Source: an uncultured Acidobacteriota bacterium
GTDB lineage: Bacteria; Acidobacteriota; Blastocatellia; Pyrinomonadales; Pyrinomonadaceae
Direction of reading: 5' to 3'
Length of the DNA stretch: 64,000 bases
Assembly: GCA_937873515.1 (NCBI GenBank)
Contig: CALMYB010000001.1
Coordinates: 79,904 to 143,903 of the forward strand
The translations under genes and the position numbers were made by a program. This document shows, piece after piece, positions 1 to 57,371 of the stretch. Each line of letters begins with the position of its first letter. The stretch's first letter is position 1. The notes under the pieces are model-generated. The model had not been told where the DNA came from. It made no database searches and saw only the letters and a list, made by a program, of their open reading frames with translations.

Positions 1-76
1 GGGCGAGACTCGAACTCGCACGTCTTTCGACGCTAGATCCTAAGTCTAGTGCGTCTGCCAATTTCGCCACCTCGGC
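1..76 (-). tRNA. tRNA-Leu (anticodon UAG), 3' end truncated by the window edge
   Basis: The reverse complement reads GCCGAGG-TG-GCGAAATTGGCAGACGC..CTAGA-CTTAGGA-TCTAG, then a long variable arm, then GCGAG-TTCGAGT-CTCGC-CC. This is a class II cloverleaf very close to the E. coli tRNA-Leu scaffold. The anticodon loop CTTAGGA gives anticodon TAG. The last acceptor nucleotides and CCA lie outside the window. Confidence 0.85.
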
Positions 77-41635: not shown

Positions 41636-42793
41636 TTGATTACCCCCAAAATGCCCAAAAAGAAGGAAAAGCAGAGTATAAAGGTAGCCGGACGACGTTA
41701 TTCAGGTTCCGACGGCAAGGATCCTCTATCGACTGCCCTCGATGACACGGCAAGGTTATTTAATAATGGGTCGCTCTCGCTTGAGGCTCGCAAAGAAGAA
41801 GCGGCGTCCGGGGAAAGATCGCTCTCTCGGGAACTCGACGATGTTTTCATAAATAAGTACATCGAAACATTTGGTGACATAAAAGCTTCCCCCGAGACAA
41901 GCCGCGCAGCGGCTGACGACCAGGCTCTGGCAAAGACAGACAAGCTACGGGACCAGTCGTTTGAAAAAACTGAGATATATAAGGGCTTCTTTCGGGAATA
42001 CGATATTTTCAACTACGAATATCACGCTCTCGTCCGTCCGGACGGCGTTATGGCCGGGTTCAGCATTTCGCTGCCGGAGCGGAAAAAGGTCTATAGCAAG
42101 AAAGAGCGTGGATCACTGGATTCGCTGCTCCCGCAGCTCCATCAGTCGTTAAGCGACAGCCTTGTCGACATCACCAAAACGTCCGATCATGCCGTCCTGA
42201 TCGAAACCGTGAGCAAGATGACGAGGCCCGCCTTGATCGTTGATCAAAATGCGCGGGTGCGGACGGCCAACGCTCGTGCGGCTAGGATTTTGGAGGCCAA
42301 TGACGGACTCTCGGTCGATAAGAATGGCTCTTTGGCGGCGAGAACCCCGGAAGCGACCAGAGATCTTCATGCGATCCTCGAGACAGTTCATTCCGGACAC
42401 AGAGACGGAACCCAGGACGCAGCGGCCATATGTCTCCTGCGGAGGCCATCCGGCAATCGGCATCTCCAACTCTTGGCATCGCCAATTGGAGACAATTCGG
42501 GAATCGAAGGAGAATTCTTAGCTCTCGTTTTTTTGTGCGACCCCGAAAGATCAGTAAGGGTTAGCGAAGCGGTCCTTCGAAAGCTTTACGAGCTTACACC
42601 CGCCGAGGCTGCGGTCGCTTCCCGGCTTGCTAAGGGCGAATCGGTCGAACAGATCTGCGACCATCTCACGATCACTGCCAATACATGTCGCACCCATTTG
42701 AAGCGCATCTATTCCAAGACCTCAACTTCCAGACAAGGCGAACTCATTTCGCTCATCCTTACCAGCATCGCAACGATTCCCGAGCCATCCTAG
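41636..42793 (+). CDS. LuxR/NarL-family HTH transcriptional regulator without receiver domain
   Basis: C-terminal LTPAEAAVASRLAKGESVEQICDHLTITANTCRTHLKRIYSKTSTSRQGELISLI (GerE/LuxR HTH). The ~300-aa N-terminal region is unassigned. Start is TTG 41636 or ATG 41651. Confidence 0.75.
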   Translation: MITPKMPKKKEKQSIKVAGRRYSGSDGKDPLSTALDDTARLFNNGSLSLEARKEEAASGERSLSRELDDVFINKYIETFGDIKASPETSRAAADDQALAKTDKLRDQSFEKTEIYKGFFREYDIFNYEYHALVRPDGVMAGFSISLPERKKVYSKKERGSLDSLLPQLHQSLSDSLVDITKTSDHAVLIETVSKMTRPALIVDQNARVRTANARAARILEANDGLSVDKNGSLAARTPEATRDLHAILETVHSGHRDGTQDAAAICLLRRPSGNRHLQLLASPIGDNSGIEGEFLALVFLCDPERSVRVSEAVLRKLYELTPAEAAVASRLAKGESVEQICDHLTITANTCRTHLKRIYSKTSTSRQGELISLILTSIATIPEPS

Positions 42794-42819
42794 TGCCACT
42801 TTATTACTTATTTCCTCTG

Positions 42820-42842
42820 CATACCCTAAACGGGTGATGACA
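42820..42842 (+). promoter_or_regulatory. site B of shared motif CATACCCTAAACGGGTGATGACA
   Basis: 18/23 identical to site C with the same spacing and orientation. Lies about 385 nt upstream of ATG 43226. Confidence 0.45.
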
Positions 42843-43225
42843 AAGGCCCGCCGTTGTCGTAACCTCAACGAGATTTGAAGTCAATTTGCTCGTGTCGGAT
42901 TATTTTCGTGTACGAGACTGCAAGCGGGTTGTTGGTCGGCCTTTTTTAAGGTTTATCAATTGATTCGCCTTGACGTTTCATGATCAGGCCTCTCATTGTC
43001 CTCTTCATGAACATTCGCTGACCGGAGACGGGATTCCTTTACGCTCTTCCCTGTCCGCCATCAGCGCGAAACGCCGCGACTTCTTAAACGGATAAATTGT
43101 GATCACGACCAACTTCCCAAGGTCTATAGCACTGTCTACGCGGACGATCAACATCGCCCCGTTAGCTAGCTGCGCAATTTTTCGAGCCCTGTTCAGTTTG
43201 CCGAATATCTCAGGAGAAGAACCAA

Positions 43226-43453
43226 ATGTTTTTAAAGTATATCCCTGTCGAATTAACACGTGCTGCCCGAAACTTAACCGCTAAAGCTACAAGCCTAAGC
43301 CCGCGGCTCAAAGTTTCAGCAGCTTTCCTCACCTTGTGCTTGACCTTCGGCGCCGTTTGGATACAGCCGGCTCTTGCAAGCTCAGCCCCGGCCCCCACGC
43401 CGGCAACCGTCTCGCTCTCAAGCATCGCAGACTACTTTTGGTCTTTCTTCTAA
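43226..43453 (+). CDS. signal-peptide/N-terminal fragment of giant surface protein 1 (ends at in-frame TAA)
   Basis: 75 aa, homologous along its whole length to residues 1-75 of the protein starting at 52893 (MFLK..., WIQP.(L/F)A, Y(F/I)WSFF). Identical RBS context CTCAGGAGAA..CCAAATGTTT. Same reading frame as 43502..52363. Confidence 0.7.
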   Translation: MFLKYIPVELTRAARNLTAKATSLSPRLKVSAAFLTLCLTFGAVWIQPALASSAPAPTPATVSLSSIADYFWSFF

Positions 43454-43501
43454 AGCCCATCAAGCGGCGGTTCAGATAGACGTCCGCCAAAGGCCAACCC
43501 T

Positions 43502-46500
43502 TTGCTGTCAGAAGACACAGGGGCGAAGCAGCAGCCCATACCACCGACCGCTGCCGCTCTCCCATGCACGCCGACAGGGATAACACTCCCGGTACCTAGC
43601 ACATATCCAACTATCCAGGCCGCGATCAATGCCGCAAACCCGGCGGGTGGTGACAAGATCCAGGTGGCGGCAAATACCTACACTGAACAGCTGTCCATAA
43701 CCAAATGCGTCACAATCGAAGGCGCAGGCATCGGTTCAACGATCATCCAGGCTCCTGCGACGTTGGCTCCAAGCGGTGTTCTCGGCTTCACCGGAAATTC
43801 GATAGTCGAGGTGAGGAGTAACTCGTATGTAACTGTCACAGGTGTTACTATCACCGGTCCGCTACCGCTTTTAGCCTATCCTAACAAGACGTTTGGTATC
43901 TTTGTCGCCGAGAATGCCACCCTCGATATGTCAAATTCTCAGGTTACTGCAATTCACACTAGCAGTGGTGTGGACGGCGCCCAGAACGGAACCGGAATAG
44001 GGGTTGGCAGCACAGCGGCGAATACGATCGGCACTATCGTCTTGAACAATGTCACGGTCAATGACTACCAAAAGAACGGTATGCTTGTCGAACGCACTGG
44101 TTCGGTAGCCACAATTGCGAATTCGACCGTAACCGGCATTGGGCCGACGAGTATCATCGCACAGAACGGAATTCAGATAGCAGACGGCGCGACGGGCACG
44201 ATAACAGCTTCGACCATAACACAAAATCTTTACATCATTACGAATCCGCTAAACCCTTGGGCATCATCCGGCGTACTGCCTTGGAATGCCGGGGCAGTGA
44301 CGATCACCGGTTCAACCTTAAATAATAATGATGTCTCCGTTTACACAGGGACAAGCTCTGTTCCCGCTACGCCCGCACCGCTTACGATCACAGGTAATAC
44401 TTTTGACGCTAATACATACAACGCCGTATTTTACGACGCCGAGCACCCGGTAACGATCACCGATAATATTGTAACCAACACCAATTCAGCCTTTGGCGGC
44501 CTTGTTTTTGACGGGCAGACATCGACGATCTCGCGCAACTCATTCACTCTGGCCGCCGGAAGCGGCAGCGCAGGCCTTGGTTTCTACAACTACGACGACT
44601 TGTCGCCGACGACGACGGCAACGATCAACGCTCATTTCAACCGCCTATCGAGCGACAACGCAGGTGGACGCGACGGCATTTATAACGAAACTTCGAGCAA
44701 CGTTAACGCAGAAAATAACTGGTGGGGCTGTAACGCGGGACCCGGGAATACTGGCTGCGACGTCGTTAATGACACAAGCGCAGGCACAACAAACTACAGC
44801 CCTTGGCTGACGCTCACGGGTATAACTGCGTCAGCGCCTACGGTTCAATACAACGGAACATCAAATATCACAGGTGTCAGTCTCTGTATGAATTCGGTTT
44901 CGGCCGATGTTTGTACCCTCACCGACCACATCATCGACGGCCTTGCGTTCGGATATGGAACAGCACCTGGTACAGCGGGATCGGTATCTCCCACAACATC
45001 AACTTTTATGACCGGAGTTGCGAACGCCGGTACGACATTCACCGCGGGCGCCGGTCCATTCGTCGGCGACCAGACCGAAGCCGTCGGAGCGACCTTCGAC
45101 AACCAAACGATCTCGACGAACGTCGTCGTCCACGACAGCACCCCGCCTACGTTGGTCTCGTTTACTGCGGATACGGCTGATCCGCAGAATTCGCTGACGG
45201 TGACATTTACGGCAGTCTTCAGCGAACCGGTAATTAATTTTGACGGTGGTGATTTTGGCACTGCATCCGGAAGCGTTAATTCAGTTACGCAAATAGCTCC
45301 GATGGATGGCACGACCTGGAAGGTTACGGCTACTGCGAATCCGGGATCGACTTCAATGTCGGTCAATCTTCTTAGCGGCGGTATTCAAGACACGGCGGTG
45401 CCCGCAAACAATCTTGGAAGTGGCCAAAATGTTACAGTGACCTTTGCTTCTGCGTCAGGGGAATTCATCGTCGACGAAGCAGGCATTAACTGCCTCGGCA
45501 ACGGCAAACCGATCTTTACTGATATTCCAAGTGCAGCGAGTGCGGCGAGTACGGGATCAACGATACGCGTCTGCCCGGGTACGTATCCGCAAGGCAGTTC
45601 GACGGTATCAATCCCAAGCGGAAAGAACAATGTGACGATCATCAATGCTCAGGCGACAAAACCTGTGGTCAATGTTTCCGGAACGAGTTATGGATTTCAG
45701 ATCGGCGGAAGCGGGGCCACGATCGAAGGTTTCGAAATTCACAAAATCGACAACGTGGACAAGAACGTCATCACAATCCAAGGCACGAACTTCACCGGCC
45801 AGAATCTCGACTTCATTGCTGATACACCATGGTCAGGCGGGCAGGTTTCGCGTGCCTTTGAGGTCTCAAGCACCGGACTTAACATCAATAACAATACGAT
45901 CACCGATTTCCGGCAGCCGGCGTATATAAACGGCGACGGCTCAACAAACCTCGGTACGATCTCGAACAACGTTTCATCTGGTACCAAGGGCTGGGTATTC
46001 GATAATGCGATGGTCACGATGACCGGCAATACGTTTCCCGCGGGCTGCGCAGCATGCGGGTTCAGCGACATTGCGGTCTTCCCAGGTGCTTCGGCTACTG
46101 TCCAGGCATTCTGGGGCGGCACGAACGCTCTTGCTATCAGCAACACGAATGACAACGCGTATCTTGACCTGCAATGGACAGGTGCGGGCGATGACGGGCG
46201 TGCGATTAGCTATGTTGACGATATCGTAACCGCCGGCAACGGCAGGACGGTGGCGGCTGCGCGCAACTCGATCCAGGACGGCATCGACAACACTCTTATC
46301 GGCGGCACCGTTCACATCGAACCGGGCACATTCGTCCAGGAAGCCAACGTAAATCGAACCGTCAAGGTTGAAGGATCGGGAGCCGAAGGCGCAAATCAAT
46401 CGAAGGTGTCGGGACCTATCGGCGGCACGGATAGTGCGACGATTCGTATCACGGCGAACAATGTCGATATCAGCGGACTTCTTATCACCCGCGAAGGCAA

Positions 46501-49500
46501 CAACACGACTGATTGGAATAGCGGTCTGAAGTCCGCCGGGCTTGCGATCCAGGGTCAGGCAACCACAGGTGCGGTCATCCACGACAACAAGTTTGACGGT
46601 AACCGGAACGCTCTTGATATCAACAATTCGAACGGCCACACGATCCGCAATAACGTTATCGACAACAACCGAACCGGAATGATCTTTCGAAATCAGACCG
46701 ACAATTTGAAGGTTGTTGAAAACGCGATCACCAACAACTGGACAGTAGGCGTTCTCTTCCTTGATGCAAGCGGCGGGACGAATTCGCCCGTGCAGACAGC
46801 CGCAAACTCCATTTTTAGCAACAACAACATTAGCGGAAATTGGTACGGTCAGATCGTTGAACGCCAGGCAGGCGGTTCCCTTCCCGCGCCTGGCACGAAT
46901 TTGAAGAACTTCCAGGGCAACTGGTACGGCTCAGCTGCTCCGGTCGTCACGACCGCCAATAGTACGGAACCCGGATATTCGGCACTGATACCGGTCGCCT
47001 ACGGCGGAACCGCAACTGCTCCGGGCGGTCAGCCCGATATCGCAGGTCCGGCTTCCGCGAACTTCCGCTACGATCTGCCATTGACCGTTGGAACTGACAC
47101 TGACGTTGAAACAATCTCAGGCCGCGGAACTTACGGCTTCCAGGGCGCGAATCTCGTTGTCAACAGCGCCGTGACGATCAACGATCCAGATCCTCGTCCG
47201 GCCGGGTGGTTCTTCTGGAACGAAGGGCCGAACGGCTCGCATGGGTTAGAGACTGGGCCGAACGGCAGTCATCTCGGCGCCGGCAGTGCTCGTCTGAGTA
47301 TCGACGTAAACGGTCGCGAGAGTTTTGGAACGGCGGCCTACGGCGGTATTCGACTTCGCGACATCACCAAACTGAAGTTCAAGACGTGGACGACGGGCCC
47401 GGATGCTCCTGTTCTGCAGTTCGATGTGGATAACGATCTCTCTGAAAATACGACCATTCCCGACACGACATATCAAGGCCGTCTTGTATTTCAACCGGCA
47501 GGCACTGTAACGCCGAATACTTGGCAGCAATGGGACATATTTGCCCCCGGAACTCTGGTTTGGGGAAGTGGTTCGGGACCAAATCGACCGTTTTCAAATG
47601 CCTGTCCGCAATCAAACCCATGCACGCTCGCAGCGTTGCTCGCGAATAATACTTTCAAAGATCTGGGTGTAAGGCTTCCCGGCGGCGGCGGAACTCTGCT
47701 CTTCCGTGCAGGCGGTCCATCAAGCACGGATATAACCGAGTTTGTCGACGATTTTGAGGTCGGAATCCAAACCGGAAACACTACCTACGACTTTGAACCC
47801 GATCTCAACACCGCTCCTACCGTGACCTCGATCACACGCGGCGGTCCCGATCCGACAAATGCTGCGAACGTTACGTTCAACGTTGCGTTCAGCGAACCGG
47901 TAACGGGCGTTGATACTACTGACTTTGCTCTCGATACTGCAGGCGTTTCAGGTACGTCGATCTCGAACGTTACAGGGTCGAATGGAAACTACGTCGTTAC
48001 GGTCAATACAGGCTCAGGCAGCGGCACGATCCGCCTCGACGTGAATGCCGGAGCGTCAATCTTCGACATCGCGAACAACCAGTTTGGCAATGCTTACACC
48101 GGGCGTGAAATTTACACGATCGATAGGACGGGGCCGAACTCTACGGTCTCGCCTGTCGCGGATCCTGACACGACGTCGCCTGTTGACTTCACGGTCAGTT
48201 TTGGCGAGACCGTTACCGGATTCGATGCCGCGGATGTAACGATCGGCGGTTCAGCCAATCCAACGGGATTCACGATCGATGGCTCTTACACCGTTCACGT
48301 TACCGGTATGAATCAGTCCGGCACGGTGACCGTCAGCATCAACAACGCAGGCGTTACCGACTCACTCGGCAATGCGGGTACCGGAGCATCGTCTAGCTCT
48401 GCACAATTCAACCAGCAGACAACACCGAACGTCCAGACGCCTTTGGCACCGACCTGGGCGTACTATGACGACAATACGAACGCCGTAATCTCCGGCTATG
48501 ACTATGTTTATGGGCCGAACGGCGGGCCGCTGCCGGCGGGCAGTGCTCGCTTGCAGAGCGGAGCCGGCGATCTCAAAGGTCTGTTCACGCAAGACTATAA
48601 CAACACGAAGCTCGCTAACATTACGACGCTCAGCTACTCGACCTATGTCCACGGCTCGGCAACGAATGAGCCGACGCTTCAGTTCAACGTGGATTATGAC
48701 CTTACAGACGGCAACACGACCTACCAGGGCCGCGTGGTTTACGTCCCAAGTCAAAACGGCAGCGTCTCGGCTGACACCTGGCAGAATTGGAACGCTTTGA
48801 CAGGCGTATTCTGGTATTCGTCACTTTCGCCAGTAGCAATTGAGTGTACACAAACTGTGCCCTGCACGCTCAGCCAGATGCTCGCGGCTCATCCAAACAT
48901 GGGCATCCATGCTACGGCCGGAGCTATCGGTTTCCGATCCGAGCAGAACAGCAACTCCAACGTTGACAACTTCGTGATCGGCATCAACAGTGCGAACACT
49001 GTGGTCAACTTCGAGCCCGCGGGGGCGATGGTGAGCACGCCTTCGTCACCGAACGGCTGGTTCTATTGGGAGGATGACGATGACCATCTCGTAACGGGAT
49101 ACGATTATGTATTTGGGCCTTTGGGCGGACCGCTTCCGGTGGGAAGCGCCCGCGTCGCGAGCGGAACCACGCCCGGCGATCAGAAGAAGGGGCTCTTTAC
49201 ATTCCAGTATCGCGGTACGCCTCTTGATCAACTGACGACGCTCAAATATTCAACCTATGCCGCTACGGCAGGTGATGTTCCATATTTCCAGATAAGCGTT
49301 GACTTTACGGGTAACGCCAATCCGGGATACCAAGGCCGACTGGTCTATGTCCCGAGTGAGAACGGCACATTTACCGCGAACACTTGGCAGACCTGGGATA
49401 TGTTGGCTTCGACTGCGAAGTTCTACTATTCGTCCGGCACTTACTCGCCAAATGGCGACGGATGTCTAGCAAGTGAAGGCAACGGCGGCTGCACTCTGGC

Positions 49501-52363
49501 CACTATCCTTTCGGCGCACCCGAACGCTCGTGTGATGCCGAATGGTGATCCGGGCCATCCCGATCCGAATAACACTTGGGGTGTGATCGGCGTCCGCACC
49601 GACCCCGGAAAATCCGGCAACGTCGATAACATTATCGTCGGCGTCAATGCCGCGGACACGACCTTTAACTTCGAGCCTGCAGGCGTAGTTGTAAGTACGC
49701 CCGTATCGCCAAAGGGCTGGTTCAGTTGGGACGACACAGCCGAAGTTCCGTGTGACAGCGAGTATGTGACTGGTCCGGCGGGCGGGCCTTTGCCGGTCGG
49801 AAGCGCACATCTTTCGAGCGCGACCTGCAGTGGTTCGGTTACTAGTACCGACAGGAAAGGCTTCTTCACGAAAGCTTTCCAGGGAGCCCGTCTCGATCAG
49901 ATCACGACGCTCAAGTACTCGTCGTACGTCCCAACCGGCACCGGTACGCCGTCGTTCCAGATCGGCGTCGACTTTACCGGTGCCGCCAATCCGACCTACC
50001 AGGGTCGCCTCGTCTATGTTCCGACCGGTGTCAGCTACGGCAGTTGGCAGACTTGGGATCTTATGACTCCTGGTACGAAGTTCTATTACTCGTCAAACAC
50101 GTACTCGCCGAACGGTGACGGTTGCTTGATGAATCAGGGCTCAGGCTGTACTTTGGCCACGATCCTTGCGGCTCACCCGAATGCTCGTGTAATGCCGAAT
50201 GACGACCCGAACCCGCTTGTCCCGGATACTTGGGGCGTTCTCGGCATCCGAATGGACGCGAACGCGAACGCCAACGTAGATAACGTCATCGTCGGGGTTA
50301 ATGGTGCGGTCAACACGTTCGACTTCGAGGCGGCGCCGCCGACGGTCTCGATCGCGGTTAATCCTGGCAATGTGACCGAGGGCAGCAATGTATCGTTCAC
50401 GGTCTCGCTTACGGGCGATACACCGGAACGCACGGTGCCTGTCACGGTGCTTCTAAATACTACAGACGGAACAGCGACGGGCAGCGGCACAGACTACACG
50501 TCTGCCGTGAATCAAGTTGTGACATTTGCACCGGGTGTTTCGTCACAGACGGTCACCGTCGCTACTGCGACCGACAACATCGCGGAAGGTGCCGAAACGT
50601 TTACGGCAACGCTTTCAAATGCTGTAAACGCCGGTATCGGCACCGCATCCGCGACCGGCACGATCAACGATGGAGCAGGCTACATCGCCATCGGCGGCCA
50701 CGTTATGGCTTACAACAACGGCGGCCCGCAGACTGGTATCGCCGGCGTCACAATGACTCTGACCGGAACTAGCAACGGTTCGCCGATCACTCTGACGACC
50801 CCAACGGACGTTAACGGCAACTACAACTTCAACACGGGACTTTCGACAACTGGGCAATATTCGGTGGCTCCGACCGTGGCAGCACCCTATGTGTACGATC
50901 CGGAGTCGATCTACTACATCAATCCCGCAAGCAGTGTCACGAACGCAAACTTCGTTGGATACAATAATGACAATCCGCGACATGTAACAATTGGAAATGT
51001 CACTCAAAGCCAAGTTGGGGCAAATGTAGTTGTTCCAGTGACGTTCAACGCTTTGGGAACAGAACAAGGCGGCTCATTCGTACTCAGTTTCGACACGTCA
51101 AAACTTCAGTATGTCTCGGCGTCGGCACCGTCTGGCACAAATCTGGTAGTCTCTGCTGGTCCGGGACCGAAGACAGTATCGTTTAGTAAACTTGGTCCGC
51201 CCTACACGGGCTCGGTCACGCTGAACTTCACCTTCAGTGCAACGCCGGGCAATGCACTATCGACTCCCGTAGCCTTCGCAAATCCCAAGAGAATCTCCAA
51301 TACCCAAGGTGTTGGTGTCCCCGCGGTTTGGACTGATGGCTCTGTTATTTTTGCCCAAGGCAACGAGGGTGATATTTCCGACGGCACCACGGGCGGATTT
51401 ACGGACGGGTACGTCGATTCCCCGGACGTTAGCAGGGTCGTAAGTCTTATAGTAGGTGACGCAGTTCCGAATCCAAACGTAAATGAATTCCAACGCGCGG
51501 ATGCAGGGCCTTACCTCCCAAGTCGCGGCGACGGTTGTATCGACGCTCTCGATCTGACGGCAATCCTGCTCTATTCAGTCGGCGATCTACCGACGACACC
51601 AGCGGCTGGCCCGGTAGCACCTCCGTGCGGTTCACCACTCCAGGCGAAGGATGCCGCAAACCGAATAACCGGCGGTACAGTTGTTCGATTTGTCGGGTCA
51701 CGGGCGGCTCCGGGCAGCAACATTGACGTACAGGTAGAACTCTCGGCTCAAGGTATCGAAAATGGCACAACATTCACCTTGAACTATAATTCGACAGTAC
51801 TGGATGAATTTCCGACGATCACGCTTGGCTCGGGAGTTCCCAATGGTGCCTTCTTCTTTACGAACTCGATGTCGCATCCCGGAAAAACGGCCGTAACGTT
51901 CAGCCTGCAATCGGGCCAGACAATGCCTGTCGGAGATACAGTTATTCTCAACTTCCAGTATCACGTTAAGTCGTCGGCCGCTGTCGGCACCTACCCTGTG
52001 GTGTTCACCAGCGACTTAGCCCGCCAGCGGGTAAGTAATACTCAGGCACAGAACGTCCCTGCGACTTGGGAAGATGGTGCCGTTGAGATAATGCTTGCAC
52101 CGACGGCGGCGACGTCTTCGGTGGGCGGCCAGGTGCGGACGGCGGATGGTCGTGGCATTGGCAATACGGTCGTAACCCTGACGGGCACGGACGGAAGCGT
52201 CCGCAGGGCGTTGACGAACCAGATGGGCTTCTACCGCATCGACGACGTACCGACGGGTGCGACGTATGTACTCGGCGCGACGTCGAAGCGCTACACCTTC
52301 GACAGTCGGGTGGTCACGGTAGGCGATAACATCACGGATGCGGATATCACTCCGCGTGAGTAA
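43502..52363 (+). CDS. giant secreted surface protein 1
   Basis: 2953-codon open frame. Domain order is beta-helix x2, Ig-like domains, 4 unassigned modules, Calx-beta, CarboxypepD_reg, cohesin, dockerin-like, cohesin, CarboxypepD_reg CTD. Supporting motifs: YPTIQAAINAANP..G and NWWGCNAGPG of beta-helix proteins; Calx-beta (DGTATGSGTDYT...TV..ATDNIAEGAETF); cohesin-like V.V.V....G......F.L.(Y/F)(D/N)...L blocks. The listed TTG start is only the first start-type codon (TTG) after the in-frame TAA. The biological start is probably ATG 43226. Confidence 0.8.
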   Translation: MLSEDTGAKQQPIPPTAAALPCTPTGITLPVPSTYPTIQAAINAANPAGGDKIQVAANTYTEQLSITKCVTIEGAGIGSTIIQAPATLAPSGVLGFTGNSIVEVRSNSYVTVTGVTITGPLPLLAYPNKTFGIFVAENATLDMSNSQVTAIHTSSGVDGAQNGTGIGVGSTAANTIGTIVLNNVTVNDYQKNGMLVERTGSVATIANSTVTGIGPTSIIAQNGIQIADGATGTITASTITQNLYIITNPLNPWASSGVLPWNAGAVTITGSTLNNNDVSVYTGTSSVPATPAPLTITGNTFDANTYNAVFYDAEHPVTITDNIVTNTNSAFGGLVFDGQTSTISRNSFTLAAGSGSAGLGFYNYDDLSPTTTATINAHFNRLSSDNAGGRDGIYNETSSNVNAENNWWGCNAGPGNTGCDVVNDTSAGTTNYSPWLTLTGITASAPTVQYNGTSNITGVSLCMNSVSADVCTLTDHIIDGLAFGYGTAPGTAGSVSPTTSTFMTGVANAGTTFTAGAGPFVGDQTEAVGATFDNQTISTNVVVHDSTPPTLVSFTADTADPQNSLTVTFTAVFSEPVINFDGGDFGTASGSVNSVTQIAPMDGTTWKVTATANPGSTSMSVNLLSGGIQDTAVPANNLGSGQNVTVTFASASGEFIVDEAGINCLGNGKPIFTDIPSAASAASTGSTIRVCPGTYPQGSSTVSIPSGKNNVTIINAQATKPVVNVSGTSYGFQIGGSGATIEGFEIHKIDNVDKNVITIQGTNFTGQNLDFIADTPWSGGQVSRAFEVSSTGLNINNNTITDFRQPAYINGDGSTNLGTISNNVSSGTKGWVFDNAMVTMTGNTFPAGCAACGFSDIAVFPGASATVQAFWGGTNALAISNTNDNAYLDLQWTGAGDDGRAISYVDDIVTAGNGRTVAAARNSIQDGIDNTLIGGTVHIEPGTFVQEANVNRTVKVEGSGAEGANQSKVSGPIGGTDSATIRITANNVDISGLLITREGNNTTDWNSGLKSAGLAIQGQATTGAVIHDNKFDGNRNALDINNSNGHTIRNNVIDNNRTGMIFRNQTDNLKVVENAITNNWTVGVLFLDASGGTNSPVQTAANSIFSNNNISGNWYGQIVERQAGGSLPAPGTNLKNFQGNWYGSAAPVVTTANSTEPGYSALIPVAYGGTATAPGGQPDIAGPASANFRYDLPLTVGTDTDVETISGRGTYGFQGANLVVNSAVTINDPDPRPAGWFFWNEGPNGSHGLETGPNGSHLGAGSARLSIDVNGRESFGTAAYGGIRLRDITKLKFKTWTTGPDAPVLQFDVDNDLSENTTIPDTTYQGRLVFQPAGTVTPNTWQQWDIFAPGTLVWGSGSGPNRPFSNACPQSNPCTLAALLANNTFKDLGVRLPGGGGTLLFRAGGPSSTDITEFVDDFEVGIQTGNTTYDFEPDLNTAPTVTSITRGGPDPTNAANVTFNVAFSEPVTGVDTTDFALDTAGVSGTSISNVTGSNGNYVVTVNTGSGSGTIRLDVNAGASIFDIANNQFGNAYTGREIYTIDRTGPNSTVSPVADPDTTSPVDFTVSFGETVTGFDAADVTIGGSANPTGFTIDGSYTVHVTGMNQSGTVTVSINNAGVTDSLGNAGTGASSSSAQFNQQTTPNVQTPLAPTWAYYDDNTNAVISGYDYVYGPNGGPLPAGSARLQSGAGDLKGLFTQDYNNTKLANITTLSYSTYVHGSATNEPTLQFNVDYDLTDGNTTYQGRVVYVPSQNGSVSADTWQNWNALTGVFWYSSLSPVAIECTQTVPCTLSQMLAAHPNMGIHATAGAIGFRSEQNSNSNVDNFVIGINSANTVVNFEPAGAMVSTPSSPNGWFYWEDDDDHLVTGYDYVFGPLGGPLPVGSARVASGTTPGDQKKGLFTFQYRGTPLDQLTTLKYSTYAATAGDVPYFQISVDFTGNANPGYQGRLVYVPSENGTFTANTWQTWDMLASTAKFYYSSGTYSPNGDGCLASEGNGGCTLATILSAHPNARVMPNGDPGHPDPNNTWGVIGVRTDPGKSGNVDNIIVGVNAADTTFNFEPAGVVVSTPVSPKGWFSWDDTAEVPCDSEYVTGPAGGPLPVGSAHLSSATCSGSVTSTDRKGFFTKAFQGARLDQITTLKYSSYVPTGTGTPSFQIGVDFTGAANPTYQGRLVYVPTGVSYGSWQTWDLMTPGTKFYYSSNTYSPNGDGCLMNQGSGCTLATILAAHPNARVMPNDDPNPLVPDTWGVLGIRMDANANANVDNVIVGVNGAVNTFDFEAAPPTVSIAVNPGNVTEGSNVSFTVSLTGDTPERTVPVTVLLNTTDGTATGSGTDYTSAVNQVVTFAPGVSSQTVTVATATDNIAEGAETFTATLSNAVNAGIGTASATGTINDGAGYIAIGGHVMAYNNGGPQTGIAGVTMTLTGTSNGSPITLTTPTDVNGNYNFNTGLSTTGQYSVAPTVAAPYVYDPESIYYINPASSVTNANFVGYNNDNPRHVTIGNVTQSQVGANVVVPVTFNALGTEQGGSFVLSFDTSKLQYVSASAPSGTNLVVSAGPGPKTVSFSKLGPPYTGSVTLNFTFSATPGNALSTPVAFANPKRISNTQGVGVPAVWTDGSVIFAQGNEGDISDGTTGGFTDGYVDSPDVSRVVSLIVGDAVPNPNVNEFQRADAGPYLPSRGDGCIDALDLTAILLYSVGDLPTTPAAGPVAPPCGSPLQAKDAANRITGGTVVRFVGSRAAPGSNIDVQVELSAQGIENGTTFTLNYNSTVLDEFPTITLGSGVPNGAFFFTNSMSHPGKTAVTFSLQSGQTMPVGDTVILNFQYHVKSSAAVGTYPVVFTSDLARQRVSNTQAQNVPATWEDGAVEIMLAPTAATSSVGGQVRTADGRGIGNTVVTLTGTDGSVRRALTNQMGFYRIDDVPTGATYVLGATSKRYTFDSRVVTVGDNITDADITPRE
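47201..50329 (+). repeat. four copies of a ~190-210-aa protein module inside giant gene 1
   Basis: Copies lie at about 47201-47800, 48448-49018, 49049-49678 and 49708-50329. Two Ig-like domains separate copies 1 and 2. Shared landmarks: GWF.W.., Y(V).GP.GGPLP.GSA(R/H), TTL.YS(T/S)Y, FQ..VD(F/Y), YQGR(L/V)VYVP, TWQ.W(D/N), CTL...LAAHPN, NVDN.(I/V)(I/V)G(I/V)N....(N/D)FE. Confidence 0.8.
50975..52095 (+). other. cohesin / dockerin-like / cohesin cassette of giant protein 1
   Basis: Cohesin-like blocks at about 50975-51355 and 51671-52095. Dockerin-like duplicated segment at 51362-51590 (TDGYVDSPDVSRVVSLIVG and GDGCIDALDLTAILLYSVG, each fitting DG.(V/I)(D/N)..D(L/V)..(L/I/V)....). Confidence 0.6.
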
Positions 52364-52651
52364 GTAAGAAGGTAAGTTTGGGTGGAGAGCATCAAGATCC
52401 TTGCCGCTTGCCACCCTTGCTCTTTTCCTAAGATCGCGTAGAACGCACGATTTATCTTCCCACAAATGGCATGCTGCTTTTTCTCCCACTAAAGCGGTAT
52501 GCCATTTTCTTTTCGTCCGCGAGAACCTTGGACGGTTGACCCAGATCGTACAAACAGGCCATCGGCCGCTGCCGCGTGGGCCGATTCTCCCCGTTCATCG
52601 CGCTAGATACCTGTCTAACCATAGCCTGATCAAAACGACCAATTTATATGG

Positions 52652-52674
52652 CATACCTCAATTGAGTGATGACA
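52652..52674 (+). promoter_or_regulatory. site C of shared motif CATACCTCAATTGAGTGATGACA
   Basis: Contains the perfect 10-bp palindrome CTCAATTGAG (52657..52666). Reads as 7-2-7 TACCTCA-AT-TGAGTGA. Lies about 220 nt upstream of ATG 52893. Confidence 0.45.
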
Positions 52675-52892
52675 GGTTCTCCGCAACCTGTGCAATCTAT
52701 ACGGAAAATTAGCAAAGACCTGCGGTCTTCCTTTGGCATTTGCCCCCAAAGAGCGTTTCTCGTCCTCGTTCGATCAAGTTTCGGGAGTGACGCGCAATTC
52801 CATTCCCGGGGGGCGGCTTGAAGTGATGACCGCCTTTTCTGTTTCACTCGGCGAACGGAAGCGCATTTTTTAGGTTCTCAGGAGAAAGCCAA

Positions 52893-55800
52893 ATGTTTCT
52901 GAAAAGGAATCCCTTCGTTTTTGTATCAGCTCTTCGATATTTTGGAAATATCGCATCCGGTCTTGAACTGCGTTTGAAGATCTCAGCCGCACTTGTCGCC
53001 TTGGGCATCGCCGCCGGCCTTGGCTGGATACAGCCGACGTTTGCAAATTCAGTTGTCGCCCCTGTTGAGGCGAGCTTCTCGCTTTCGGGTATTTCTGCCT
53101 ACATTTGGTCATTCTTCTCGCACGACGGTCGACGACGGATCCCGACTCCGCGTCCTGCCCGAGACATTGCATCCTTTGGCAGTCGGGAGAGCCTTCCCCA
53201 GACTTCTTCTGCCGCTCCTTGTTCTCCTTCCGGCGTAACCCTGAATGTTCCGGGAACGTATCCGACCATCCAGGCGGCAATTAACGCGGCCAACCCCTCC
53301 GGCGGCGATACGATCGCAGTTGCCGCAGGCAGCTATACTGAGCAGATATCGGCAGGAAAGTGCGTATCGATCGTCGGCTCGGGAGTCAGCAGTACGACGA
53401 TATTTGCACCCGCGACCATGGTTGATAGTACAGTACCCGGCGGCTCGGCCAGGGCGATCGTCGAAGCACGGGCGAACGCATATGTCACCGTCAAAGACCT
53501 ATCGATCTCCGGCCCGGTCACGTTTTCTCCAACGAGTGGAACCTTTGGCGTCTTCGTGGCGGAATCGGCGACCTTGAACATGCGCAATGTTCGCGTCACG
53601 ACTATACAGCAGTCTTCCGGAATTAACTCTGCCCAAGACGGACAAGGAATTGTTGCAGGTGATACGACCTTCGGCACTGCGGGCTCCCTCGATCTTGATG
53701 GGGTTACGATCGATGGTTATCAGGAGAATGGCATACTCGTAGGGGGCGCCGGCTCTTCCGCAACCATCGCGAATACAACGGTAACCGGCACGGGACCGAC
53801 CAGCTTGATAGCACAGAGCGGGATCCAGATCTACGGAGGAGCGTCCGGGGTTATCTCTTCCTCGACCGTAAACGATAATCTGTACTCATTGAATTCAGGA
53901 GCCGCTACAGGAATTCTCACTGCGGATGCGGGAGCTGTATCGGTTTCGGGCAGTGCATTCAGCGGAAATAGCTACGCGATCTATCAATACAATTCGGCTC
54001 TCCCGCTTACCCCTTCAAACTTTTCAGCGACAGCCTGCACGTTCACGAATAATCCCGGAGCAGGCATCGTTTATTCAGCGGCCGCAAGCCCGACGATCAC
54101 AAATAACTTCATCTCCGGGAGCAATATCGGCATCGCCGGATTTGTTGCTGACAACCAAACGTCAACGGTGAAGGGCAACTCGATCACTAACGCGACGGGA
54201 GCCAACAGCGTTGCGATCTTTTTCAACGACTTCAGCAGTTCCGTCAACACAACGTTAGCGACGGTCAATGCGAACTTTAACCGACTCTCGAGCAACAACA
54301 CCGGCGGCCTAGCGGGCCTTCAAAACGACTCTGCCAGTTCGGTCAATGCTGAAAATAATTGGTGGGGATGTAATGCCGGCCCGGGCGCTACCGGGTGCGA
54401 CATCGTCGCCGGTACGGGCCCCGGTGTCGTCGACAGTGATCCGTGGTTAACTCTCAGTGGGATAACTGCTTCGCCTGTAAGTCTGAATTATTCGCAGACG
54501 TCAACGATCAGCGGTGTGAACCTGTGCACAAACTCGGCCGCAGCAACCGTGTGCAGCCCTGCCGATCACACTCCTGATAGCCTGAGCGTTGCCTACTCCA
54601 CGTCGCCGGGCACGAACGGCTCGGTTGCGCCGGCAAGCGGTGCGTTCACAACCGGTGTCGCGGCGGGTACAACGTTCACCGCCACGAGCGGGCCGATTGT
54701 CGGCAACCAGATCGAGAACGTCGGTGCTATTTTCGACAATCAAACCATCGCAACAGCAATTACAATACTCGATCCATCAGGCGGAATCTCCATCAGTGGA
54801 CGGATCACCGCCTACACTGGCGGTGCCGGGATAGACGGAGTTACTGTAACCTTAACTGGAACTAGCAGCGGCAGCCCCGTCAACCTTTCGACCACTACCG
54901 CGTCCGGTGGGAACTTCGCGTTCAGCGGCGGCCTTTTCGCGAACGGATCATACTCGATCATTCCGTCATGCCCGAGTGACCCGCAATGTTCTGCCTTTAC
55001 CTTTGATGCTTCCCAGCGAGACTATCTCAACCCGCCGAGCAGTATAACGACTGCGGATTTTGTTGGCTATAACGGAGATAATCCAAGAGATGTGGTGATC
55101 AAGAACACAACTCAAACGCCTGTTCTTCCGGGACAGCCGGCCGGAGTGGGCGCCAATATTACCGTGCCGATTCAGATCGCAAGTCAAGGTACCGAGAATG
55201 CAATGGCATTTACGCTGGTCTATGACTCGAGTAAGCTGCAGTTCTTATCGGCCGCATGCGACCCTTCTCTGGCATCGTTGGGATGCGGCATTACTCAGCC
55301 CGGGCCGGGCGGCTCGCCGACGACCTTGACGATGGCCTTACAGCCCGGAGCTGTTCTGCCGGCATCAGCCACACCGGCAACGGCCTTGTTGGTCACCTTC
55401 AAGGCGACCCCGGGCACGTCGACGTCGACACCGCTTGCCTTCAATACGATCCCGAGTTCCAAATCCGTCAGCAACAATAACGGCTACGCAGTACCTGCGG
55501 ACTGGATAGATGGTGTGGTTTCTTTCGCTGGCGGTTTTGAAGGCGATGTCGCTGGAGGACAACCAGCAAGCTCTGGGATACCGAATGGCCAGGTCACGTC
55601 GGGAGATATCACGAGGATCCTAAATCTGGTTTCTCACAATACAACGCCAAACCCAAACGTAAACGAGTATCAGCGTGCAGACTGTGCCCCGATCGGAACC
55701 TTTGGAAATGGCCTGCTCACCTCGGGTGATGTCACCGTAGCCTTGCGTTACGCAAACGGTGACCTGGTTGGTATCCACAACCCGGCAGCAGGAGCCTCTA

Positions 55801-56576
55801 CCGGGCTTAGGCAAACACAGGTTCCTCGCGATCGGGACTCTAGATCGCCGTCACTTTTACTCGCACCGGGAGATGTCAGCGTTCTCGGAGCCCTTGCGGC
55901 CCCAGGCAGCACTGTCGCAATTGATATCGAGCTTGAGGGCCAAGGTATCGAAGCAGGATTTGGATTCACACTTGAGTTCGACCCAAATGTGCTGAGTCTG
56001 AGCACTCCCGGCGGGGTTTCTGAAGGGGCTGACGTCTCAACGTATCCTCATATATTCTCACCTAACATATCGCAGGCTTCGAGCGGAAGAATCGGTGTTG
56101 TTTACAATCTCACGACCTTTGGTGCGAGTATGACCCCGGCGGGACCAAAGAGGATTGTTCACGTGACGTTTTTAGTAAACTCTGCTGCCGTCGTTGGAAG
56201 CACTACACCGATCTCGTTCTCAGACGCGGTTTCCATTAGAGAGGTCAACGACGTTGACGGAAATTCCTTGACTCCAAATTGGGGTGATGGGGTCATCGAG
56301 ATCAGTCTCTCCCCGACGGCGGCTGAATCTTCAGTTGGCGGGCAAGTAAGGACGAATGATGGTCGAGGAATTGGAAATACTGTCGTTACCTTGACTGGTG
56401 TTGACGGCGTAGTCCGCAGAGCGTTAACGAACTCCTTTGGATATTATCGTATAGACAATGTACCGACAGGAGCGACGTACGCCTTAGGAGCTACTTCGAA
56501 GCGGTATGCTTTTGATACTCGGGTAATCACAGTGGGCGACAATATCACTGACGCAGACCTCACACCGCGCGAATGA
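52893..56576 (+). CDS. giant secreted surface protein 2
   Basis: 1227 aa with an intact signal peptide. Collinear with the N-terminal ~480 aa and C-terminal ~750 aa of protein 1. Domain order is beta-helix, CarboxypepD_reg, cohesin, dockerin-like, cohesin, CarboxypepD_reg CTD. It lacks the central ~1700 aa of protein 1. Confidence 0.85.
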   Translation: MFLKRNPFVFVSALRYFGNIASGLELRLKISAALVALGIAAGLGWIQPTFANSVVAPVEASFSLSGISAYIWSFFSHDGRRRIPTPRPARDIASFGSRESLPQTSSAAPCSPSGVTLNVPGTYPTIQAAINAANPSGGDTIAVAAGSYTEQISAGKCVSIVGSGVSSTTIFAPATMVDSTVPGGSARAIVEARANAYVTVKDLSISGPVTFSPTSGTFGVFVAESATLNMRNVRVTTIQQSSGINSAQDGQGIVAGDTTFGTAGSLDLDGVTIDGYQENGILVGGAGSSATIANTTVTGTGPTSLIAQSGIQIYGGASGVISSSTVNDNLYSLNSGAATGILTADAGAVSVSGSAFSGNSYAIYQYNSALPLTPSNFSATACTFTNNPGAGIVYSAAASPTITNNFISGSNIGIAGFVADNQTSTVKGNSITNATGANSVAIFFNDFSSSVNTTLATVNANFNRLSSNNTGGLAGLQNDSASSVNAENNWWGCNAGPGATGCDIVAGTGPGVVDSDPWLTLSGITASPVSLNYSQTSTISGVNLCTNSAAATVCSPADHTPDSLSVAYSTSPGTNGSVAPASGAFTTGVAAGTTFTATSGPIVGNQIENVGAIFDNQTIATAITILDPSGGISISGRITAYTGGAGIDGVTVTLTGTSSGSPVNLSTTTASGGNFAFSGGLFANGSYSIIPSCPSDPQCSAFTFDASQRDYLNPPSSITTADFVGYNGDNPRDVVIKNTTQTPVLPGQPAGVGANITVPIQIASQGTENAMAFTLVYDSSKLQFLSAACDPSLASLGCGITQPGPGGSPTTLTMALQPGAVLPASATPATALLVTFKATPGTSTSTPLAFNTIPSSKSVSNNNGYAVPADWIDGVVSFAGGFEGDVAGGQPASSGIPNGQVTSGDITRILNLVSHNTTPNPNVNEYQRADCAPIGTFGNGLLTSGDVTVALRYANGDLVGIHNPAAGASTGLRQTQVPRDRDSRSPSLLLAPGDVSVLGALAAPGSTVAIDIELEGQGIEAGFGFTLEFDPNVLSLSTPGGVSEGADVSTYPHIFSPNISQASSGRIGVVYNLTTFGASMTPAGPKRIVHVTFLVNSAAVVGSTTPISFSDAVSIREVNDVDGNSLTPNWGDGVIEISLSPTAAESSVGGQVRTNDGRGIGNTVVTLTGVDGVVRRALTNSFGYYRIDNVPTGATYALGATSKRYAFDTRVITVGDNITDADLTPRE
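55083..56310 (+). other. cohesin / dockerin-like / cohesin cassette of giant protein 2
   Basis: Cohesin-like blocks at about 55083-55535 and 55869-56310. Dockerin-like segments are PNGQVTSGDITRILNLVS and GNGLLTSGDVTVALRYANG, joined by the conserved linker PNPNVNEYQRAD. Confidence 0.6.
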
Positions 56577-56639
56577 GTCGAACTAAGCTGGAGTCGAGGG
56601 CCTGAGGCTACCGATCCTATCAGGTGTTCTAATGCGTCC

Positions 56640-57371
56640 TCAGTTCCCGTTCAGTTCCTCTCCGTTGGTCGAAGGGCGATAAGCCGGATGATGGGCAGGA
56701 CTCCCCGGCGCTTCGACAAGCCCGTTCTCGTAGGCATAGATCACCAGGTTAAGCCTGTCGTCAACACCGATCTTTCCGTAGATCGAACTTAGATGGTGCC
56801 GAATCGTCGCCTCACTGACGGCGAGTTCACGGGCGAGTTCCTTGTTCTTTCGACCGGCCGCCAAAAGCTTTATTACCTCAAGTTCTCTAGGAGTCAAAGA
56901 TTCCGCGTCGGTTGCCCTAGAATGATTTGCCGAAGTCTCGCTTGGGTGTTTCTCCCTCTCAAGGATCTTGTGAAGGACGGTTTGATTCAACCAGGTTTCG
57001 CCGGCATAGGTCTGGCGGATAGCCTCGACCAAGAGTTTTGCACTCTGCTCGATCTGAACGATGCCGACAGCACCCATTTTCAGAGCACGAGCCTGCGAGT
57101 CCAGATCCGCTCCGGCAACGAGGATAACAACCCGAAGCGCCGGATTCTCGTTCAATAGATGCCCAACGACATCAACCTGATCTTCTGCGGTCAAATAGAC
57201 GACAGCAACATCGGCATTTAAGACGCTGGATGTACTGCCTTTTGTGTGGTCGAAAGTGTATAGCCCCGTGACAGAGAGGCCCTCATTCGACTCGATAAGA
57301 TGCCTAAGGCTCTCCTGCACGATCTCGTACTTACCGACAAGGAGGACACCGATATGTTTACTTCTACTCAT
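56640..57371 (-). CDS. LuxR/NarL-family regulator with pseudo-receiver domain
   Basis: C-terminal HTH LTPRELEVIKLLAAGRKNKELARELAVSEATIRHHLSSIYGKI. Aligned by eye to NarL, the acidic pair is GK, the phospho-Asp position is Tyr (VAVVYLTAE), and the conserved Thr/Ser and Lys positions are also substituted. Confidence 0.75.
   Translation of the reverse strand: MSRSKHIGVLLVGKYEIVQESLRHLIESNEGLSVTGLYTFDHTKGSTSSVLNADVAVVYLTAEDQVDVVGHLLNENPALRVVILVAGADLDSQARALKMGAVGIVQIEQSAKLLVEAIRQTYAGETWLNQTVLHKILEREKHPSETSANHSRATDAESLTPRELEVIKLLAAGRKNKELARELAVSEATIRHHLSSIYGKIGVDDRLNLVIYAYENGLVEAPGSPAHHPAYRPSTNGEELNGN

Follow-up and report, generated by a model that had tools for sequence, protein, structure and literature searches.

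The in-frame TAA that interrupts a giant gene in the window (the whole 64,000-nucleotide stretch of DNA that was analysed) is probably a recent, unprogrammed change of TCA to TAA that has turned an accessory gene for a giant exoprotein into a null allele. The stop is found in none of the homologous genes that we compared, the frame beyond it bears the imprint of purifying selection up to the recent past, and signals that would allow ribosomes to pass the stop were not detected. An error in the sequence, which would look the same at so early a stage, is the main alternative weighed below.

One interrupted reading frame and its intact paralogue

Translation of the frame from 43226 to 52363 gave 3046 codons with a single internal stop, at codon 76, in addition to the terminal one; across the internal stop, the frame reads ...SSIADYFWSFF, stop, SPSSGGSDRRPPKANPLLSEDTG.... 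An open reading frame of 75 aa with an ATG start (43226..43453) ends at this TAA (43451-43453), and a second one, listed as 2953 aa (43502..52363), begins at the first in-frame TTG; the two share one frame, and their starts lie 276 nt apart. The true open stretch directly after the premature TAA amounts to 2969 codons and runs up to the TAA at 52361-52363. The 75 codons align end to end with the N-terminal parts of homologues that run uninterrupted past the stop site, and because the match extends over their full length, the short open reading frame and the frame downstream were not juxtaposed by chance. Read from its sequence, the locus is one disrupted giant gene (~3,045 codons) and not two open reading frames (Table 1).

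Table 1. Features of the giant-gene locus, in window coordinates
Feature	Position	Strand	Evidence and remarks
LuxR/GerE-family regulator gene	41636..42793	+	Pfam GerE, 1.5e-07; directly upstream of the giant-gene family in L001, L002 and L161-L165 too
Shine-Dalgarno AGGAG	43212..43216	+	9 nt before ATG 43226, within the conserved TCTCAGGAGA block
N-terminus of the giant protein, 75 sense codons, predicted extended signal peptide	43226..43450	+	Translation; full-length alignment to intact homologues
Premature TAA (ochre), codon 76	43451..43453	+	Orthologue has TCA; single C-to-A at 43452
Remainder of the giant gene, 2969 codons and natural TAA	43454..52363	+	Beta_helix/NosD, Big_12 and Calx-beta domains; in between, internal repeats of no assigned family
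TTG codon, the first in frame beyond the stop; start assigned mechanically to the listed 2953-aa frame	43502..43504	+	Without convincing Shine-Dalgarno; product without signal peptide
Intact paralogue, 1227 aa	52893..56576	+	N-terminal module as in the giant gene; codon 76 is TCG (Ser); C-terminal CarboxypepD_reg

The paralogue (52893..56576) reads ...SGISAYIWSFFSHDGRRRIPTPRP... across the corresponding site, where TCG occupies positions 53118-53120, likewise codon 76. Aligning four 5' regions (those of the two window genes, the orthologue in locus L001 and the homologue in locus L002) revealed an invariant block, TCTCAGGAGA..CAAATGTTT, as their shared start context. These results bear out much of a preliminary description of this DNA, which had placed the two open reading frames in one frame with a single stop between them, had found the paralogue continuous with TCG in place of the TAA, and had noticed a start context common to both genes. 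They also agree with its remarks that ~8.9 kb of the downstream frame are fully open (2969 codons without a stop) and that the 2953-aa frame lacks a signal peptide and begins at a TTG without an obvious ribosome-binding site: the only hydrophobic segment lies upstream, and a convincing Shine-Dalgarno sequence was not found at the TTG. Elsewhere in the window, in-frame neighbour pairs tested as candidates for further stop-split genes proved by Pfam to be unrelated genes (chorismate-binding/DnaJ, SDR/metallo-beta-lactamase and others).

The predicted exoprotein

Pfam identified Beta_helix/NosD, Big_12 and Calx-beta domains in the giant protein, and its first 400 aa contain a sole hydrophobic segment, residues 28-47 (core given as 30-46). 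This segment has a number of features in sequence: basic residues (R27 and K29) precede the hydrophobic core, A-L-A follows it at residues 49-51, and the motif SLSSIADYFWSFF, which is retained in every family member, comes after the signal segment. The first 75 codons are thus predicted to encode an extended Sec signal peptide with a putative cleavage site, and the gene product is predicted to be a Sec-exported multidomain beta-helix/Ig/Calx-beta protein. In the orthologue from the sister species (described below), the signal peptide runs on unbroken into the mature protein; in the window, the TAA separates the two.

The N-terminal module of the family begins with MFLK, continues through a hydrophobic core that ends with WIQP[AT][LF]A[SN] and, after ~12 residues, reaches SL[SA]..[AS].Y.WSFF (window 43226-43450 and 52893-53117; loci L002-L005); it had no Pfam or NCBIfam match. 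The aromatic motif beyond the predicted site of cleavage could serve in sorting or anchoring. Further downstream, four internal repeats of ~190 aa each were seen in the translation at residues ~1160-2250 (window 46700-50000), with the signature W[FA].W...GP.GGPLP.GSA..., TLKYS.Y, YQGR[LV]VYVP and ...F[ND]FEP, and these too matched no Pfam domain or NCBIfam model. The C-terminal ~95 aa (SSVGGQVRT.DGRGIGNTVVTLTG.DG.VRRALTN...TPRE) are near-identical in the giant protein, the paralogue and homologues from other samples (window 52080-52360 and 56290-56573). Pfam calls this stretch CarboxypepD_reg in the paralogue only, with no such match in the giant protein; these proteins may share it as a domain for anchoring or sorting.

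In its domains, its size of ~3,000 aa, its extended N-terminal signal peptide and its mosaic divergence (see below), the protein resembles the giant bacterial exoproteins built from parallel beta-helix, Ig-like and Calx-beta arrays. It differs from them in the N-terminal module (WIQPxxA ... SLSSIADYxWSFF) and the four ~190-aa repeats, which are the parts that Pfam and NCBIfam models leave unmatched.

Codon 76 and constraint across relatives

The giant-gene orthologue in Acidobacteria MAG SZAS-14 (locus L003; nearest named relatives, Pyrinomonadaceae) is one uninterrupted open reading frame of 3079 aa, with TCA (Ser) at the position of the window's TAA. Nucleotide identity between the window and this orthologue is ~88%, so L003 represents a different (sister) species. 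The window itself belongs to a soil or sludge acidobacterium: flanking genes and relatives point to Acidobacteriota, with Pyrinomonadaceae MAGs as the nearest named relatives. Exact copies of the 3079-aa protein are recorded on 24 contigs or more, and the six places shown correspond to six sequencing runs. Position 43452 is A in the window as compared to C in L003 and L001 (GCA_044220715.1, JBGAQL010000012.1), two loci that are not independent of each other; the ancestral serine codon is therefore one transversion away from the stop, TCA becoming TAA through the C-to-A change. The closest protein (P0001), which comes from L001 and is 88% identical over the query, is likewise uninterrupted at the stop site, reading ...WSFFSSPSNGSSDRRPPKANPLLSEDTG.

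Elsewhere in the family, codon 76 is TCA in L001, L003 and L004, GCT in L002 and L005, TCG in the window paralogue and a serine codon in the L003 paralogue; the L005 homologue is an intact giant of 2922 aa. A sense codon was present at the site in all six homologous genes examined, and the stop was unique to the window. This comparison of the codon in relatives, which the preliminary description had proposed, found TCA in the sister-species orthologue and sense codons in all other homologues. A single orthologous species, but no sister strain, emerged from the genome scan, and neither the 75-aa frame nor the 1227-aa paralogue had an exact-protein match in the collection searched. A DNA pattern across codon 76, with N at the variable bases, had no match in metagenome contigs, and a profile scan of metagenomes recovered distant relatives only (identity did not exceed 35% over sizeable stretches or 59% over short fragments).

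At L001, the giant gene falls into pieces of 998, 273 and 1703 aa because of gaps; the gene for OMP decarboxylase is likewise in pieces there, and the glutamine synthetase gene is shortened. We considered this three-way split as pseudogenisation of an orthologue and rejected it: L001 has zero base mismatches to L003 and differs by only three small gaps, and genes other than the giant one are split as well. Since L001 equals L003 apart from these three gaps, its splits are assembly artefacts and not pseudogenes. Accumulated lesions in orthologues, which according to the preliminary description would point to plain pseudogenisation, were not found; the L001 splits are gaps relative to L003, which carries the gene intact.

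Downstream of the stop, comparison of the window with L003 over 3024 codons gave a dN/dS of 0.14, indicating strong purifying selection, and all indels between the two orthologues comprise whole codons. Neither a frameshift nor a second stop was found in the 2969 codons past the premature TAA. A relative-rate test with L005 as the outgroup counted 119 amino-acid changes unique to the window and 133 unique to L003, and thus no acceleration. Between 2.4% and 2.8% of point changes in the frame of the giant gene would create a stop; given 2969 codons without a second one, neutral drift since inactivation is bounded at less than about 1.2-1.4% (95%). Secondary decay in the window lineage, in the form of stops, frameshifts or a raised dN/dS, was not found, and if the gene has been inactivated, only a very young event fits its absence. 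Together, these data suggest that either the mutation is very young, or it is not present in the organism, or the gene is still expressed.

Divergence from the L003 orthologue is mosaic (window 43226-46500 compared to L003 10001-13300). Identity is ~91% upstream of 43470 and 98.6% over 43470-44190, and it falls abruptly to 61-67% over 44192-44491; dS between the window and L003 is 0.077 in the first 250 codons and 0.6-1.6 elsewhere. This pattern suggests recent recombination inside the giant gene. The near-identical tract has its 5' edge 18 nt downstream of the TAA.

The content of the locus also varies: L004 carries the short paralogue only, L005 the giant gene only, and the window and L003 carry both. 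As the giant gene is missing in L004, and the short paralogue in L005, loss of the giant gene is tolerated in the family. A GerE/LuxR regulator gene stands upstream of the locus in the window as it does in the other loci named in Table 1.

Origin and consequences of the premature stop

A consensus, sequencing or assembly error would place TAA in an intact gene whose codon 76 is TCA in the organism, and we regard this as possible, if rather unlikely. Such an error is consistent with the single base that separates the stop from the orthologous serine codon, with the giant gene being otherwise without sign of decay and with our searches, in which the collections yielded no independent sequence of the window's own species to confirm the base; artefacts do occur in related MAG assemblies, L001 differing from L003 by nothing else than three gene-splitting gaps. 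Against an error, the site is neither a homopolymer nor a repeat, and the other genes checked are unsplit: the in-frame neighbour pairs tested belong to separate Pfam families, and open reading frame lengths match those of L003 where the two are syntenic. With other genes unsplit and lengths in agreement with L003, the window does not look error-rich, which modestly favours a real mutation. Consensus errors in long-read data are mostly indels, and substitutions in short-read data are rare at normal coverage. A programmed ON/OFF switch is a further possible reading, as phase variation is frequent among large surface proteins. The change, however, is a base substitution in unique, non-repetitive sequence; no simple-sequence tract, inverted repeat, invertible element or silent cassette copy was found at the stop site, and no repeats of 40 nt or longer were found in window 42800-57000. 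Phase variation of the usual kind, the form in which the preliminary description had raised an OFF state, is thus highly improbable here.

The stop might instead be real and bypassed, a functional protein being made at full length through near-cognate readthrough or an ochre-suppressor tRNA encoded elsewhere in the genome, or in N-terminally truncated form through reinitiation at TTG 43502 or GTG 43664. The open 8.9-kb frame with its unchanged constraint would also be expected if the stop were tolerated or bypassed, and the base at +4 is A and not U, the strongest terminator base at that position (PMC5289835). Readthrough in bacteria, on the other hand, is lowest at UAA (PMC5289835), and the stop is present in no homologue examined; this lack of conservation among orthologues argues against programmed readthrough or recoding. 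TAA is moreover an ordinary terminator in this genome region, ending nine of the 35 long open reading frames in the window (three of them as TAAA) and the giant gene itself in both the window and L003. The RNA fold of 121 nt around the site was not significant relative to shuffled sequences (z = -1.1) and was not kept in L003 (z = 0.1), no Rfam family matched at the stop site, and ARAGORN found no complete tRNA gene in the window. A partial tRNA gene, cut by the window edge, matches Rfam RF00005 at window 1-76 on the minus strand (41.7 bits) and is not called by ARAGORN. As for reinitiation, the in-frame restarts (TTG 43502, GTG 43664 and TTG 43763) are not preceded by a convincing Shine-Dalgarno sequence, and a restart product without the only signal segment would strand an exported protein in the cytoplasm. 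We therefore consider bypass improbable, and both of the forms that the preliminary description had entertained, readthrough and reinitiation, lose ground on these observations. Efficient decoding of a real ochre codon, by a suppressor tRNA or in an unusually leaky context, would explain the lack of decay across 8.9 kb, with the giant protein still made at a reduced, perhaps regulated, level; to this version we give very little credence. Programmed readthrough and recoding (leaky UGA, selenocysteine, pyrrolysine) share with this locus an in-frame stop followed by a long, open and conserved frame. They differ in that the codon here is UAA and not UGA or UAG, is unconserved and is accompanied by no SECIS- or PYLIS-like element or significant structure, and in that the same tetranucleotide ends ordinary genes of the window. 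An altered genetic code, in which TAA would be a sense codon in this organism, has nothing in its favour beyond the in-frame TAA itself. It is effectively refuted by the open reading frames that end in TAA, among them the giant gene, which stops after ...ITPRE where its orthologue also ends; no other homology-supported in-frame TAA was found within the window.

We thus favour a recent nonsense mutation, one of three options that the preliminary description had left side by side; TCA in the orthologue supports it, a sequencing error still stands beside it, and readthrough or reinitiation recedes. The features of a nonsense allele are present, with a premature stop where the orthologue is continuous and a sense codon one step away. 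We infer that the DNA truly carries the change and that the cell makes no full-length protein. Under this reading, a point change from TCA (Ser) to TAA would have arisen very recently in the window's lineage; ribosomes starting from ATG 43226 would stop at codon 76, releasing a 75-aa signal-peptide fragment and leaving the downstream 8.9 kb untranslated. Such an allele would be either a pseudogene that has only just formed or, in the population sequenced, a variant that has lost its function, and the intact neighbouring 1227-aa paralogue may take over part of the function.

The closest parallel is found in accessory genes for large surface or secreted proteins that have become ochre null alleles or nascent pseudogenes: they share with this locus the single premature stop relative to intact orthologues, the codon one step from sense, the variable presence of the gene and the absence of a bypass signal. 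The window differs in having neither further lesions nor relaxed constraint, which places it at the youngest detectable stage, where a base-call error looks the same. The finding is an ordinary one. Its main consequence concerns annotation, in which a single giant gene interrupted by a premature stop (a disrupted gene or pseudogene) should take the place of a 75-aa open reading frame followed by a signal-less 2953-aa protein starting at TTG. Should the mutation be real, it would represent a common evolutionary event that raises no new question, the first step in the loss of a costly accessory exoprotein.
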